A DNA stretch of 47,327 nt. It comes from an uncultured Candidatus Saccharibacteria bacterium. Its GTDB lineage: Bacteria; Patescibacteriota; Minisyncoccia; Phycocordibacterales; UBA9973. This document shows positions 1,336-45,458 of this stretch, piece by piece. Made by a program: the position numbers and the translations under genes. Position 1 is the stretch's first letter, and every line of letters starts with the position of its first letter. The stretch covers positions 222,665 through 269,991 of the forward strand of contig CAYOLW010000001.1 of the NCBI GenBank assembly GCA_964404925.1, in the 5' to 3' direction. Under the pieces are notes generated by a model that was not told where the DNA came from, searched no databases, and saw only the letters and a list, made by a program, of their open reading frames with translations.

Positions 1336-1369
1336 CCCTGTCGTTCGCGAACGACGGGGCTTTTGTTTT
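1336..1369 (+). terminator. Second, GC-rich terminator hairpin
   Basis: CCCTGTCGTTCG/CGAACGACGGGG, a 12-bp stem with one G-U pair and no loop spacer, followed by CTTTTGTTTT. Confidence 0.6.
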
Positions 1370-1385
1370 GTGCTATATTGTTGAT

Positions 1386-2099
1386 ATGCGTTTCCATATA
1401 ATAAGTATTTTCCCGAATATTTTCGATTCATATATAAATGAGTCTATTTTAGGGCGGGCAATAGAGAACAAGCTAGTCAAAGTGAGTTTCTATAACCCAC
1501 GTGATTTTCTACCCAAAACAGCTAATAATTATCGTCCGGTAGATGCTCGTCCATATGGTGGTGGACCTGGTATGGTGATGCAAGCAGAACCTATATTAAA
1601 AGCTGTTGAGAAGGCCATCGCCACGGCCACTCGTTTTTCTTCAGGTCCTCGGATCTCCTCGACTAAAGCCTCGGCCAGACCGTTCAGAAAAACGAGTGGC
1701 CGTCTGCTTATAATTAATTTTATTCCTTCTGCAGAAAAATTTACTACAGTAGAAGCCAAGAAGATTTCAAAAAAATACACTGATGTGATTTTGATTTGTG
1801 GACGGTATGAAGGTATAGATGCACGTGTAGATAAAATTCTAAAAACAAAAAAGTTCTCAATCGGAGACTATGTGCTGACCGGAGGAGAAATCCCAGCCAT
1901 GGTGTTGATCGATTGTATTTCTCGCCAAATTCCAGGAGTGCTTGGCAAACTTGAATCCCTTGAAGAAGAAAGGGTTTCATCGAGCGAGGTGTATACCAGA
2001 CCCGAAATACTAAAATATAAGAACAAAAACTACAAAGTCCCTACAGTATTGCTTTCTGGGAATCATGCTAAAATAAATGAGTGGAAATCTAATCGCTAG
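1386..2099 (+). CDS. trmD: tRNA (guanine37-N1)-methyltransferase, carrying an in-frame 27-codon insertion
   Basis: MRFHIISIFPNIF..., RPYGGGPGMVM, ICGRYEGID and GDYVLTGGEIPAMVLID are TrmD motifs. The ATG at 1386 is preferred over the track's TTG at 1368 because TGcTATATT (1371-1379) lies 6 nt upstream of it. Confidence 0.92.
   Translation: MRFHIISIFPNIFDSYINESILGRAIENKLVKVSFYNPRDFLPKTANNYRPVDARPYGGGPGMVMQAEPILKAVEKAIATATRFSSGPRISSTKASARPFRKTSGRLLIINFIPSAEKFTTVEAKKISKKYTDVILICGRYEGIDARVDKILKTKKFSIGDYVLTGGEIPAMVLIDCISRQIPGVLGKLESLEEERVSSSEVYTRPEILKYKNKNYKVPTVLLSGNHAKINEWKSNR
1623..1703 (+). repeat. 81-nt GC-rich stem-loop element inserted in frame in trmD (copy 1)
   Basis: There is a perfect 18-bp inverted repeat, ACGGCCACTCGTTTTTCT (1623-1640) / AGAAAAACGAGTGGCCGT (1686-1703). 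Core segments at 1641-1659 and 1670-1685 are identical to 22002-22020 and 22031-22046 in tgt. It encodes a Ser/Arg/Pro/Ala-rich peptide at a position that is short in the E. coli TrmD sequence as I recall it. Confidence 0.8.
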
Positions 2100-20584: not shown

Positions 20585-21365
20585 AAAAAACAAGAACAAG
20601 AAAAAAATACGCTTCACGTTAATAATTATTATAGCGGGAGCCTTTTTATATTTTAGTGGATCTATCTTTAATCTTCTTTCTCCTGGGACAGGTAGAGTGT
20701 TTTCTTCGGTTATGGGGCTCAGTACAAGAATAAAAAACAATATACATAATATATCTGCTTATTTTGTTAGTAAAAATTCGCTATTAAGCGAAAATGATTC
20801 TTTGAAAAATACTATTAGAGATAATGAAGCACGCATGGCTAACTACGAGGCGCTTTTTAATGAAAATGAAAAATTAAAAGAAATTTTATTACGTAAACAT
20901 GGTGAGCAGGCAATGCTTTTAGCAGGGATAATCAGTAGTCCTAACCAATCCCCATATGATACTTTAGTTATTGATGCTGGAGAATCTAACGGCATAAAAG
21001 TGGGGGATAAAGTTTTCGCTTATGGTGATATACCAATTGGTGTTGTGTCAGAAGTTATAAAGAATTCTGCAAAGGTCAGACTTTTCTCAACTTCAGGAGA
21101 ACATTTAACTGCCGTTTTAGCTGGTAGTGATACTTTTGTAGAATTGATTGGACGGGGTCGTGGGAATTTTGAAGCTATTCTACCTAGAGATTTTGAACTA
21201 GCAGAAGGAACCTTAGCACTTCTGCCGGGAGTAAATCCATATACAGTAGCTGAAGTTTCTTCTGTTATTTCTGATCCTCGTGATTCGTATAAAAAAGCAT
21301 TACTAAAAAGCCCTATTAATATTTTTGAATTAAAGTTCGTAGAAATATCTTTAGATGGAATTTAA
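20553..21365 (+). CDS. mreC: Rod-shape protein MreC
   Basis: It has an N-terminal TM, a coiled-coil and a beta-rich C-terminus, and lies directly after mreB. The start is uncertain (20553 or the ATG at 20565). Confidence 0.7.
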   Translation: MVTKMSYLQDKKNKNKKKIRFTLIIIIAGAFLYFSGSIFNLLSPGTGRVFSSVMGLSTRIKNNIHNISAYFVSKNSLLSENDSLKNTIRDNEARMANYEALFNENEKLKEILLRKHGEQAMLLAGIISSPNQSPYDTLVIDAGESNGIKVGDKVFAYGDIPIGVVSEVIKNSAKVRLFSTSGEHLTAVLAGSDTFVELIGRGRGNFEAILPRDFELAEGTLALLPGVNPYTVAEVSSVISDPRDSYKKALLKSPINIFELKFVEISLDGI

Positions 21366-22650
21366 AATTACAAAAAAATTAGATGGTCATTTGGGTAGAG
21401 CAGGAGTTGTCAGTACTCCACACGGAGAAATATTAACTCCGGCTTTTGTGGCGGTTGGGACAAAGGCGACAGTTAAATCTTTAAATCCAGATCAGGTTAA
21501 GGACGCCGGAACACAGGTGGTGCTTGGTAATACCTACCATTTATATTTGCAACCAGGGGACGAGATAGTGCGTGCTGCCGGTGGTATTGGTAAATTTATG
21601 AACTGGAGTGGTCCCACGATGACTGACTCGGGAGGTTTTCAAGTTTTTTCATTAGGTGCTGCATATGGTAAAGATATTTCCAAAATAGTTAAGATCACAG
21701 ATCCGTCACTTTTAATACCAGAGAGATTTGATGATTCTGATGCCCCCCGACTCGCAAAGATTGGACAGGATGGAGTTTCTTTTAAATCACACCTAGATGG
21801 AAGTATTCACTATATAACACCAGAGAAATCAATTGAGATTCAGCACAATCTGGGCGCGGATATGATATTTGCTTTTGACGAGTGCACTTCTCCGACAGAA
21901 GATTTGAAATATCAAAATGAGGCATTAGACCGCACCCATGCTTGGGCTAAGCGTAGTTTAAAAAGACACTTGGAACTCGAAGCACAGAAACAAGCTAGTC
22001 CTCAGGTCCTCGGATCTCCTTCGCCTACGGCTCGGCCAGACCGTTCGCCCCAGCTTGCTTCTGCGCTTCCTCAAGCGCTTTTCGGGATCGTGCAAGGCGG
22101 GCGGGAAGAAGAATTAAGGAAAAAATCTGCCCAGATTATTTCTGAAATGAATGTTGATGGAGTAGGATTTGATGGTTTTGGTATTGGAGGCTCATTTGCC
22201 AAGGAAGACATGTCTACTGCCGTTAAGTGGGTAAATGAAATTTTACCAGAAGAGAAGCCTCGACACCTTTTGGGTATTGGTGAACCAGAAGACTTATTTA
22301 TGGGGGTAGAAAACGGTGTTGATTTGTTTGATTGTGTGACACCTACCCGACTAGGCCGCAACGGCACACTTTATACCAAAGATGGTAAATTAATCATATT
22401 AAATGCCGAATTCAAAACTGATCATAGGCCTATTGAAAACGATTGTCCTTGCTATACCTGTACTAACTATACTAGGGCATATATAGCACATCTTTTCCGA
22501 GGTAAGGAAATGTTGGCTGGAACTTTGGCTTCTATTCATAATCTTCACTTCTTGGTTCATTTAGTGGCCGATATGAGGGAGTCTATCCTTAACGGTGGCT
22601 TTGAGAGTTTCAAGAACGGGTTCTTGGCCAGATATAATAAGAATATTTAA
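21355..22650 (+). CDS. tgt: Queuine tRNA-ribosyltransferase, carrying an in-frame ~30-codon insertion
   Basis: Motifs include VLGNTYHLYLQPG, TDSGGFQVFSL, MIFAFDECT, ALFGIVQGG and the Zn site CPCYTCTNYTRAYIAHL. Confidence 0.93.
   Translation: MEFKITKKLDGHLGRAGVVSTPHGEILTPAFVAVGTKATVKSLNPDQVKDAGTQVVLGNTYHLYLQPGDEIVRAAGGIGKFMNWSGPTMTDSGGFQVFSLGAAYGKDISKIVKITDPSLLIPERFDDSDAPRLAKIGQDGVSFKSHLDGSIHYITPEKSIEIQHNLGADMIFAFDECTSPTEDLKYQNEALDRTHAWAKRSLKRHLELEAQKQASPQVLGSPSPTARPDRSPQLASALPQALFGIVQGGREEELRKKSAQIISEMNVDGVGFDGFGIGGSFAKEDMSTAVKWVNEILPEEKPRHLLGIGEPEDLFMGVENGVDLFDCVTPTRLGRNGTLYTKDGKLIILNAEFKTDHRPIENDCPCYTCTNYTRAYIAHLFRGKEMLAGTLASIHNLHFLVHLVADMRESILNGGFESFKNGFLARYNKNI
21979..22069 (+). repeat. 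91-nt GC-rich stem-loop element inserted in tgt (copy 2)
   Basis: The 18-bp arms GAAGCACAGAAACAAGCT (21979-21996) and AGCTTGCTTCTGCGCTTC (22052-22069) pair at 16/18 positions, with two A-C mismatches. The core at 22002-22020 and 22031-22046 is identical to the trmD copy. It lies in the segment between WAKRS... and ALFGIVQGG that is short in E. coli Tgt. Confidence 0.8.
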
Positions 22651-30773: not shown

Positions 30774-30829
30774 AATTTTTATAAAAAAAACAGAAAACCC
30801 CCAACCGGTAAGGCAGAGGGTTTTCATAT

Positions 30830-31177
30830 GGGTTGAGATGTCTATAAGCCGAATTCTGTTTTCGCCTCATCGGCGAATGGCAGTTATTTATCTAGGATTA
30901 TTGTTACCAATAACCTCAAGCGATTCTTTCGCCTTATCGGCAAACACGATCTTGCATTCACGTAAGGATTTAGCCGTTTCACTTTCCGCATTACTACGGA
31001 ACTCGCCCCTTGATTTCTCTCAGGGCGATTTTTCTCTTTCAAGAAAAATCGTCTCTGTTCGCACCTCGCACCTCGCGGTGGACGGGGGTTACCCGCTACG
31101 CTTTCCACCTCATCGGCGGATAAATGTTCGGACTTTCCTCTACGCCGTGGAGGCGTAGCAACTACCCAACATCTCGC
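30830..31177 (-). ncRNA. rnpB: RNase P RNA (bacterial type)
   Basis: The minus strand has GAGGAAAGUCCGAAC (CR-I, reverse complement of 31129-31140), ACAGAAUUCGGCUUAU (CR-V, reverse complement of 30844-30859), and P1 pairing GAGAUGU (31175-31169) with ACAUCUC (30841-30835). A promoter lies directly upstream. Confidence 0.9.
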
Positions 31178-33433: not shown

Positions 33434-33712
33434 GTAAAGTGTACCTTGAAAAAGGTGCCTCAAAATTCTATCCGTAAAGCTCTGCAAATGCAGGGCAGGA
33501 AAGAAATTGCGAAGCATTCATTCAGCCTCTACGGCTGATCCGCCGATGAGGCGGAAGAGAAGTTAGAATCCGCTTGAAAAATAGTGGATAAAAGATACTC
33601 CGACATACGTCGGAGTAAAAAAGTTTGAATCATAGATGTTGTTGATTAGATGAAGTGTACAAAGGATGTGGGCAGGAGAAAAAATTTAAAGTATTAAATT
33701 TTTTCTCCTGCC
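33434..33712 (+). ncRNA. Candidate structured non-coding transcript or long leader (family unknown)
   Basis: It follows the promoter at 33399. It has consecutive hairpins: CTGCA-AA-TGCAG, CAGCC-TCTAC-GGCTG, TCCGCC-GATGA-GGCGGA (33539-33555), ATCCGC...GTGGAT and ACTCCGAC-ATAC-GTCGGAGT. It ends in a perfect 19-bp hairpin (33671-33712). There is no ORF of 60 aa or more. Confidence 0.35.
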
Positions 33713-42529: not shown

Positions 42530-42781
42530 ATGAATTACTATGTTTATGCCATTTACAATCGTCAGCATGGTAAGATTTATATAGGCCAGACAGTCGATTT
42601 AGAAAAAAGACTATCTGAGCATAATAATAAAGTTTACAAAGGTTTTACGAGTCGTTTTAATGGTGAATGGATTATTATTCACCAAGAGATATACGAATCT
42701 AGAGAAAAAGCTTTGATTCGTGAAAAACAACTTAAATCTTTTAGAGGCAGGGAATACGTTCGAAAACAAATTCGGGAGTAG
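42530..42781 (+). CDS. Small GIY-YIG nuclease-family protein (UPF0213/YhbQ-like)
   Basis: It has YYVYAIYNRQHGKIYIGQTVDLEKRLSEHN (GIY-N10-YIG) and a conserved Arg/Glu region. TATAAT lies 6 nt upstream of the ATG. The stop codon TAG (42779-42781) lies inside tRNA-Asn. Confidence 0.8.
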   Translation: MNYYVYAIYNRQHGKIYIGQTVDLEKRLSEHNNKVYKGFTSRFNGEWIIIHQEIYESREKALIREKQLKSFRGREYVRKQIRE

Positions 42782-42843
42782 CTCAGCGGTAGAGCGGTCG
42801 CCTGTTAAGCGATTGGTCGTAGGTTCGATCCCTACCTCCCGAG
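42772..42843 (+). tRNA. tRNA-Asn (GUU), no encoded CCA
   Basis: The sequence is UCGGGAGUAGCUCAGCGGUAGAGCGGUCGCCUGUUAAGCGAUUGGUCGUAGGUUCGAUCCCUACCUCCCGAG. The anticodon loop is CUGUUAA. Confidence 0.9.
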
Positions 42844-42930
42844 CCCTTAAAATCACTTTGTAAATCAAGGTGATTTTTTGATACCCCTGTAGGGATTAGA
42901 ACTTTTTTGTAAAAATGTTAAGATAAAATT
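42841..42930 (+). repeat. Direct repeat copy 1: tRNA-Asn 3' tip, terminator hairpin and leaderless promoter
   Basis: 42841-42894 is identical to 45370-45423 (54/54), and similarity continues to the ATG. It contains the hairpin AATCAC-N15-GTGATT followed by T6, and TGtTAAGAT 6 nt before the ATG at 42931. Confidence 0.85.
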
Positions 42931-45369: not shown

Positions 45370-45458
45370 GAGCCCTTAAAATCACTTTGTAAATCAAGGT
45401 GATTTTTTGATACCCCTGTAGGGTTCAGAACTTTTTTAAAAAATGTTAATATTAGTTT
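45370..45458 (+). repeat. Direct repeat copy 2 (terminator plus leaderless promoter)
   Basis: See 42841..42930. It is preceded by a weak tRNA-3'-end-like stretch, AGTTCGTCGAACATCGTCCCAAGTTCGGAGCCC. TGtTAATAT lies 6 nt before the ATG at 45459. Confidence 0.85.

Follow-up and report, generated by a model that had tools for sequence, protein, structure and literature searches.

A palindromic repeat element with a conserved core and site-specific stems, probably translated as selfish DNA, in tgt and trmD of a Saccharibacteria genome and in other Patescibacteria

The tgt gene of an uncultured Candidatus Saccharibacteria bacterium carries an in-frame insert that is probably a copy of a palindromic repeat element of ~75-125 bp specific to Patescibacteria. 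A sister copy lies in trmD within the same window, i.e., the whole stretch of 47,327 nucleotides that was analyzed. The explanation that we favor, which includes this identification and which we likewise hold as probable, is that of a translated selfish element similar to the Rickettsia palindromic elements (RPEs), the core of which would be copied between sites via a single-stranded intermediate, a mechanism that we infer. RPEs are small palindromic repeats of host-dependent bacteria with reduced genomes, where they occur in-frame in unrelated essential genes as well as between genes and are translated as tolerated surface additions (PMC10969869). On our reading, selfish DNA translated inside essential genes, until now a Rickettsia speciality, would extend to the Candidate Phyla Radiation (CPR), which accounts for a huge share of bacterial diversity and is poorly understood. 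The element family is not in Rfam and is undescribed as far as the searchable literature shows: across the whole window no Rfam family matched the element at the gathering threshold, a permissive threshold over the site gave only spurious miRNA and lncRNA matches with E above 1, and no prior description of such elements in the CPR was found in that literature.

The copies in tgt and trmD

The tgt and trmD copies have a 38-nt core in common and are flanked by self-complementary arms that are unrelated to each other in sequence. Counted with the inner stem, the hairpins consist of 26 + 38 + 27 nt in tgt and of 21 + 38 + 22 nt in trmD (Table 1). An earlier note, made by reading the window without database searches, had described two identical core segments, and both proved exact: positions 22002-22020 equal 1641-1659 over 19 nt, with two such matches occurring in 0 of 100 shuffles of the window, and positions 22031-22046 equal 1670-1685. 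As the note had also stated, the two copies are translated in different frames, yielding ..PQVLGSPSPTARPDRS.. in tgt and ..SGPRISSTKASARPF.. in trmD. Its account of the arms was equally accurate, in that the tgt arms (21979-21996 / 22052-22069) are complementary at 16 of 18 positions, with both mismatches being A.C on the plus strand and G.U on the minus strand. Each arm, in tgt as in trmD, is without a second occurrence in the window. The trmD arms (1623-1640/1686-1703) are complementary at 18 of 18 positions. With a covariance model of the element, the tgt copy scored 57.2 bits (E 7e-15; 21991-22056, minus strand) and the trmD copy 72.8 bits (E 1e-19). Neither a fuzzy search nor a scan with this model, filters off, retrieved a third copy from the window, the next-best match scoring 16 bits. 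The minus-strand fold of the tgt copy reaches -49.1 kcal/mol (z -3.1, 0 of 200 shuffles), compared with -34.3 kcal/mol (z -1.15) for the plus strand.

Table 1. Positions in the window of the element copies, their parts and their host genes
Feature	Position	Strand	Remarks
Whole element copy in tgt	21979..22069	-	91-nt hairpin, in-frame in tgt; structured strand is the minus strand of the window, antisense to tgt
Left arm, tgt copy	21979..22004		outer site-specific part 21979-21996; inner stem 21997-22004; peptide ..EAQKQASPQ
Conserved core, tgt copy	22005..22042	-	GGTCCTCGGATCTCC-TTCGCCTACGGC-TCGGCCAGACC
Core P1	22038-22042 with 22005-22009	-	
Core GA bulge	22010-22011	-	
Core P2	22036-22037 with 22012-22013	-	
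Core AGAU bulge	22014-22017	-	
Core P3	start 22034-22035 with 22018-22019	-	continues via tandem G.A
Core variable cap hairpin	22023-22031	-	
Right arm, tgt copy	22043..22069		pairs with left arm; first base 22043 is the unpaired R; peptide ..RSPQLASAL
Small secondary hairpin	22063..22078		GCGCTT-CCTC-AAGCGC; overlaps the end of the right arm and the native QALF codons
Sister copy in trmD	1623..1703	-	81 nt; arms 1623-1643 and 1682-1703; core 1644-1681
Host gene tgt	21355..22650	+	queuine tRNA-ribosyltransferase; ORF open through the element
Host gene trmD	1368..2099	+	ORF open through the sister copy

The products of both host genes match their Pfam families, with TrmD matching tRNA_m1G_MT (9e-40) and the window Tgt matching TGT in a single stretch over residues 14-428 (1e-131). 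The insert in Tgt lies after ..KRH and before ALFGIVQGG, exactly where it had first been placed, and uninterrupted orthologues have 9 residues at this position (404 aa versus 431 aa). When the window Tgt was modelled with AlphaFold2 (pTM 0.83), a helix was placed at residues 184-214 and a strand at residues 241-246; secondary structure is absent across residues 215-240, and pLDDT falls below 50 at residues 218-232, which belong to the insert. In this predicted structure the ~27 extra residues are a disordered loop between the helix and the strand.

Covarying stems and strand polarity across the family

One genome per species was scanned with the exact pattern GGTCCTCGGATC-N10-20-TCGGCCAGACC, which returned 45 genome loci. 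The named hosts all belong to the Patescibacteria (Saccharibacteria, Paceibacterota, Nomurabacteria or Minisyncoccia), five of the 45 loci being in MAGs labelled merely 'bacterium' or 'uncultured bacterium'. A looser scan of metagenomes gave at least 123 pattern matches; among the matches listed, complementary arms can be made out by eye in ~95, and ~25 high-GC matches are without arms, ~20 of them in ABC-ATPase genes. A scan of viral contigs gave no support for a viral origin, since its yield was two chance 17-mer matches in which the second half of the core is absent. After removal of duplicates and application of a stem filter, the analyzed set comprised at least 99 distinct copies from genomes and metagenomes, and the covariance model took 81 copies as input. 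About 36 distinct insertion sites are represented among the matches listed, and only a few copies were seen in any one genome.

The core is GC-rich, 34-50 nt long and has invariant ends, namely GGTCCTCGG preceded by A on the 5' side and GGCCAGACC followed by R-T on the 3' side, the identity of these ends across distant CPR lineages being in part a consequence of the exact-match search patterns. Around it lie an inner stem, which is a short T-run/A-run common within subfamilies, and an outer stem of 10-25 bp, which is different at each insertion site. On the strand complementary to GGTCCTCGG, the ends of the core fold into an irregular helix in which GGUCU/GGACC is followed by a GA bulge, then by GG/CC, a bulge of 4 nt (AGAU, AGAA or the like) and a covarying helix with a variable hairpin cap. 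In every copy, the 5' half on this strand consists of the site-specific, AT-rich outer stem, the T-run inner stem, A, an unpaired Y, GGUCU and GG; the centre of CC-(GA or a Watson-Crick dinucleotide), the variable cap hairpin and (GA or its complement)-GG; and the 3' half of the 4-nt bulge, CC, the GA bulge, GGACC, U, the A-run inner stem and the outer stem. At P3, the tandem GA.GA of the window subtype (G.A/A.G) gives way to GG/CC, UC/GA, AA/UU or CC/GG in other subtypes. On inspection of the core sequences, all six frames proved free of stop codons.

Covariation is strong in the stems and in an inner helix. In the alignment, 86% of cells are paired versus 68% in shuffles, double changes occupy 364 cells versus 114, and the covariation score of 0.397 (0.104 in shuffles) was reached by 0 of 500 shuffles, with slid-partner controls at 0.08-0.15. 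The earlier note had taken two unrelated stems around one core as a sign of selection on structure, and had named arms that neither pair nor covary in a larger sample as the outcome that would speak against this; the larger sample bears out the covariation. Such conservation of structure does not establish a function for the host, and a selfish element fits the data at least as well. Two familiar hairpin classes were considered for the element and rejected. It is not an intrinsic terminator, because a T-run precedes and an A-run follows the core on both strands, and inspection found no 3-nt bulge adjoining the tandem G.A as in a canonical K-turn or box C/D motif.

The mismatches that remain in the stems beyond the inner 8 bp are distributed unequally between the strands. 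On the GGTCC strand, A.C mismatches number 66 versus 18 G.T (p = 1e-7), and C.T mismatches 50 versus 8 A.G (p = 2e-8); the A.C and C.T mismatches of this strand are the tolerated G.U and G.A on the complementary strand. Wobble pairs in the aligned inner part stand at 62 versus 9. The mismatch bias has the same sign in copies of the same sense as their host ORF (85:18), in opposite-sense copies (15:4) and in intergenic copies (23:5). As the excess of A.C and C.T is present whatever the direction of the host gene, the fold that is preserved is that of the strand complementary to GGTCCTCGG, and the constancy of its sign makes the polarity a property of the element and not of host transcription or replication. 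The hint that the bottom strand could be the structured one is thus upheld by the asymmetry, as it is by the better minus-strand fold, and in the window the favored strand is antisense to both tgt and trmD. A link between orientation and replication was considered and rejected: copies of opposite sense run against local gene direction and against GC skew alike, which makes the two inseparable. In single-stranded DNA, too, no mismatches are more stable than G.T and G.A, and for this reason the bias cannot tell RNA from single-stranded DNA.

Placement in host genes, gain, loss and core exchange

Among the matches listed, 64 of the 99 copies have the same sense as the long ORF in which they lie, 15 have the opposite sense, and 20 are intergenic or at gene ends, leaving 79 (~80%) inside long open ORFs. 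Among the ~100 copies, each of the three frames is in use in either orientation, in keeping with the earlier claim that conservation operates at the nucleotide level and not the protein level, and a reading of the insert as a functional peptide is contradicted by the orientation, frame or distribution data. The ORF continues through every intragenic copy, and no split genes were found around the 20 intergenic ones. The suggestion that copies might always sit in frame-preserving surface loops of proteins holds with one correction: the ORFs are open and the Tgt insert is predicted to be a loop, but with ~20% of copies being intergenic, the element is not always in genes.

Pfam searches of 65 host ORFs, for the commonest 25 of 74 families, assigned 9 to PolA, 7 to LigA, 6 to UvrD and 5 to Tgt, followed by class I aminoacyl-tRNA synthetases (4), the CCA-adding enzyme (4), PheT (3) and UvrC (3). 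By sequence inspection, UvrA, UvrB, RecG, RecJ, DnaE, MnmA, TrmH, KsgA, PrmC, RF1 and ComF are further hosts, and TrmD is also one. Nearly all hosts of the element are nucleic-acid enzymes, a bias for which survivorship in conserved essential genes, or else a functional cause, could be responsible.

Filled and empty sites can be compared directly. Close Tgt orthologues (~88% identical, 404 aa) are without the insert and represent pristine empty alleles, and TrmD orthologues of 215-220 aa are likewise empty. Perfect short hairpins without a core, found in UvrC (L045, GCAGGAAAA-GCA-TTTTCCTGC) and in Tgt (P0118 and P0039), look like deletions of the centre. At the other extreme, the PheT site is filled in both Saccharibacteria and Paceibacteria, the proteins of which are ~50% identical, and orthologous sites are also filled in PolA, LigA, UvrB, UvrC, RecG and TrmD. 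The arms at orthologous filled sites are recognizably orthologous and change by compensation; for the left arm of the window tgt copy, the arms of L050/L052 are orthologues in which compensatory changes are seen, and the orthologue of the window trmD copy in L012 has different, compensated arms.

Cores and arms are uncoupled from each other. Copies whose cores are 100% identical make up 19 pairs, and within these pairs the arms resemble each other over only 0-17 nt, mostly <=10, of stems that are 19-36 bp long. Conversely, orthologous sites in PolA, LigA and Tgt have homologous arms around different core subtypes (A, B, D, E). This uncoupling indicates an exchange of cores between sites, either through transposition or through conversion that has the common inner stems as its bounds. 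What is conserved and common to different sites is not the hairpin as a whole but the core with up to ~10-17 nt of inner stem. Comparison between species shows the whole element inverted at orthologous LigA and MnmA sites in some lineages. In other lineages the same tgt and trmD sites are occupied by elements with unrelated cores and the same build (L173-L177), namely AT-rich, site-specific arms around a GC-rich, structured centre, and one of these unrelated-core families (..STPSRKRATPQEGN..) is present at both sites.

At the tgt site, 78 nt have been inserted net, whereas the hairpin measures 91-93 nt. The 81-nt hairpin in trmD corresponds to a net gain of 63 nt, which is ambiguous on the origin of the arms, and other element families at the tgt site show a net gain near the whole hairpin. 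No enrichment of direct repeats, as expected from target-site duplication, was detected at the element boundaries. Several candidate boundary features were considered and rejected. A CTWCG flank motif lies at the stem bases of only about 15-24 of the 99 copies among the matches listed and does not amount to a conserved terminus. Arms that are direct repeats of adjacent flanks, seen at the tgt site (AAGCATTATTT twice in L176, GCGCTT twice in the window), are not general. The idea that the left arm is native host sequence, taken from tgt and UvrC alignments, survives only as a length argument, being undermined by the finding that the supposedly 'empty' UvrC allele is a hairpin remnant and by the alignment of A-rich codons through composition. 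Where copies are clustered, they simply lie in adjacent host genes with no transposase between them, and no transposase, reverse transcriptase or other partner gene or enzyme was identified near these clusters.

Interpretation, known systems and alternatives

The favored explanation accounts for these observations as follows. Inside genes the element would simply be translated, with the ORF resuming in phase, and it would be tolerated selfish or neutral DNA that persists in essential genes because it is translated harmlessly. Being translated in phase, as a predicted disordered loop in the case of Tgt, it behaves like RPEs. What is copied or converted from site to site would be the core with up to 10-17 nt of inner stem, and the core would be recognized or propagated as a single strand of fixed polarity, either RNA or single-stranded DNA. 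Fold-back (snap-back) copying of the target flank may generate or preserve the outer arms at each site, and templated correction or compensatory change may keep them matched. Flips would arise from occasional recombination between the arms, and deletion of the centre would leave a core-less mini-hairpin. The 78-nt net gain at tgt fits a core, inner stems and one arm, as fold-back copying predicts, and it is from one or two such length comparisons (78 nt versus 91-93 nt at tgt) that we infer this origin of the arms.

The likeness to RPEs is that of a palindromic repeat lying in-frame in ORFs, as do 79 of the 99 copies among the matches listed, and, in Tgt, forming a predicted disordered loop. 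RPE families, however, each have a whole-length consensus and a conserved peptide, whereas here the central core alone is conserved, the element is read in all frames and both orientations, the stems are site-specific, and there is a strand polarity and an exchange of cores between sites. Its taxon, the Patescibacteria, also sets it apart from RPEs as they have been described. The RPE analogy thus leaves unexplained the conserved centre with site-specific stems, the strand polarity and the arm-independent exchange of cores.

As short, non-coding, hairpin-forming dispersed repeats without a transposase of their own, MITEs and REPs are also similar, and the HUH (RAYT) enzymes recognize REP elements in the form of single-stranded hairpins. 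Conserved terminal inverted repeats and target-site duplications are the defining features of MITEs; in contrast, the CPR element has variable termini and shows no target-site duplication, and its architecture, with conservation at the centre and stems that differ from site to site, is the opposite of that of classical MITEs. REPs bear a GTAG or CGTC tag and are extragenic according to PMC3733652, whereas the CPR element differs from REPs and REPINs in being without such a tag, in being ~80% intragenic and in having few copies per genome. The mitochondrial genes of Nematomorpha contain long, near-perfect coding inverted repeats, for which template switching has been proposed as the means of maintaining the arms (PMC6649704). 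These too are intragenic palindromes with arms actively kept complementary, but they have no common conserved core and are not a dispersed repeat family. Integron attC sites have conserved R/L boxes at the base of the stem and a variable centre, the reverse of the arrangement found here.

The identity of the core ends is deep, and the part of it that exceeds the contribution of the search patterns argues for a trans-acting factor or a function, which a pure junk model does not supply. We tentatively entertain, as a possible reading, that the core is the cis-site of a Patescibacteria-wide machinery acting on one strand, i.e., a new copy-and-paste mechanism or a structured RNA family that lies antisense inside essential genes. 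In the copy-and-paste variant, a core of ~40-60 nt would be installed and the target flank folded back into site-specific arms. If either variant were true, the several unrelated core families of the same architecture would form a class competing for the same permissive loops.

A related proposal, that the element is a structured non-coding RNA family or a set of sites for RNA-binding proteins, is in our view unlikely. The RNA would come from the strand complementary to GGTCCTCGG, mostly antisense in housekeeping genes, with the irregular helix as the functional part and the long stem serving for stability or as a processing site. The strong covariation, the deep conservation of the core ends across CPR lineages, and the tandem G.A motifs and fixed bulges typical of protein-binding RNA would suit such a family, as would the strand-specific G.U/G.A bias that is independent of host orientation, although the stability of G.T and G.A in single-stranded DNA means that this bias is no proof of RNA. 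Promoter-like conservation, however, is impossible, as the sequence upstream of the core differs at each site. In addition, no match in Rfam was obtained, orthologous sites have the element in flipped orientation, and close relatives have empty alleles and remnants, with few copies per genome.

The flips themselves raise the matter of intragenic invertons, which are reportedly documented in other bacteria and which likewise have inverted repeats around a short intragenic segment that keeps the ORF in either orientation. Were the element a portable intragenic inverton, the arms would be the inverted repeats and flipping of the core would switch the encoded loop between two peptides, a form of phase-variable recoding. 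A segment without stop codons in any frame between inverted repeats, and LigA and MnmA sites that differ in orientation between species, are what this would predict. Nevertheless, we regard it as improbable, as spontaneous flipping between inverted repeats is expected anyway, orientation is biased (64:15 among the matches listed) and not balanced, no invertase was found nearby, the loop peptides are unconserved and predicted to be disordered, and the strand asymmetry and conserved structure of the core are left unexplained. In addition, invertons need a site-specific invertase and switch within populations, whereas the CPR flips are known between species, and invertons do not form dispersed families built around a conserved, structured core.

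The preponderance of nucleic-acid enzymes among the hosts, and insertion sites conserved across distant lineages, might instead be taken to indicate a cis-acting mRNA structure of benefit to the host, for instance a pause in translation where two domains meet, an RNase site, or a common regulator of DNA-repair and tRNA-modification genes. This is even more doubtful: the better-folding strand is antisense to the mRNA in ~80% of intragenic copies, 20% of copies are intergenic, elements are flipped at orthologous sites and missing from close relatives, and different, unrelated core families occupy the same site.

Removal at the RNA level was considered as well, with the hairpin being recognized, cut and religated in the manner of a bulge-helix-bulge intron or of SOS splicing. 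Archaeal bulge-helix-bulge introns are the comparison case for such excision, and the long paired stem would draw the two flanks together. Yet the host frame runs through all intragenic copies without meeting a stop codon, whichever of the six frames is used, and such openness would be unnecessary if the insert were excised. As such, an intron or other intervening sequence was rejected, its removal not being needed to restore the ORF, and together with the presence of intergenic copies and the absence of split genes in the set this makes excision very improbable. Animals have an analogous system in the SOS splicing of inverted-repeat transposons, as described in PMC12779559. Finally, a chance low-complexity match or a conserved peptide motif as the source of the core can practically be dismissed, given 0 matches in shuffles, the covariance-model E-values of both copies, translation in three frames and on both strands, and arm-less matches that are merely the two from viral contigs and the ~25 high-GC ones among the metagenome matches listed.

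Returning to the translated selfish element, the strand-specific mismatches and the uncoupling of core and arms point to an undescribed, testable mechanism of propagation. The inserts inflate and diversify CPR housekeeping proteins and can mislead alignments, phylogenies and gene calling; as naturally occurring markers, they also show where Tgt, TrmD, PolA, LigA and other proteins have permissive loops.

A minor feature adjoins the tgt copy. The small hairpin GCGCTT-CCTC-AAGCGC, which had been noticed earlier and assigned to 22064-22079, does exist but begins and ends one base before those positions (Table 1), and its junction, CCTCARGC, is seen again in other filled tgt alleles.

Further insert families at the tgt and trmD sites

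The exact tgt and trmD insertion sites of the element are taken in other Paceibacterota by at least 4-5 further insert families, found in tgt orthologues (loci L173-L177 of our scans) and in TrmD homologues (P0139, P0154, P0194 and others), with the peptides ..GSLSPSADGALTLGSTACERP.., ..LLSHDSHSNLN..AYVEENT.., ..RRSHSVLEGQD..GRSEDS.., ..STPSRKRATPQEGN.. and ..ITNYELRIKNKKSK.. as examples. In the five tgt alleles analysed at the DNA level (L173-L177), every insert is a near-perfect long hairpin whose arms are AT-rich and site-specific and whose centre is GC-rich. The element therefore belongs to a wider class.

In the AlphaFold2 model of the window Tgt, residues 94-133 form a second low-confidence segment (pLDDT below 50), and this segment coincides with the place where the Tgt of a Saccharibacteria locus (L041) has a copy of the element, at residues 126-138. 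Tgt thus has a second permissive loop.

Variation in the core and at the stem bases

Core subtype D (GGTCCTCGG-ACGAGGGAGGACGAGGG-GCCAGACC; loci L053, L061, L067, L100, L102, L115, L149 and L153) retains the invariant core ends and has a purine-rich direct repeat in place of the part holding GGAGAUCC and the covarying inner helix P3. This repeat does not match the common fold, and the subtype may have a different fold or a chimeric core.

Of the 99 copies that passed the stem filter in the genome and metagenome sets together, a minority of 15-24, including those at L028, L044, L096, L101 and L146, have a CT(T/A/C)CG-like motif in direct orientation immediately outside both stem bases. At L044, for instance, GGGCTTCA precedes the stem and CTTCGCT follows it. 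The motif could be the target site of a subfamily or a nested element.

The loose search pattern also matches a conserved stretch (DEPTGNLD...VLGFLR...GQTVVMVTHD) in high-GC ABC-transporter ATPase genes, as at metagenome loci L056, L064, L066, L079, L086 and others. These matches lack hairpin arms and were rejected as coincidental; they call for caution in censuses based on patterns.

Other repeats in the window

Positions of features in the window
Feature	Position (nt)	Strand
Second low-confidence segment of Tgt	~21634-21753	
TTCCGCCTCATCGGCGGAA hairpin motif	468-489; 30858-30878; 31101-31121; 33519-33556	
RNase P RNA gene	30829-31177	minus
tRNA-Asn	42771-42846	
74-nt direct repeat	42841-42914; 45370-45443	
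18-nt tandem array	15-338	

A hairpin motif of about 20 nt with a CCGCC/GGCGG stem occurs five times, two of these copies lying within the RNase P RNA gene. The stretch at 470-489 is the exact reverse complement of the one at 33537-33556, and the two intergenic regions with the motif gave no match in permissive Rfam scans.

The two copies of the 74-nt repeat are 95% identical and include a hairpin and T-runs; one begins at the 3' end of tRNA-Asn and the other lies 2.5 kb downstream. The repeat may be a duplicated terminator/promoter module. At the start of the window, at least 11 tandem 18-nt units with about 60-70% identity presumably encode a 6-residue protein repeat that extends beyond the window edge.
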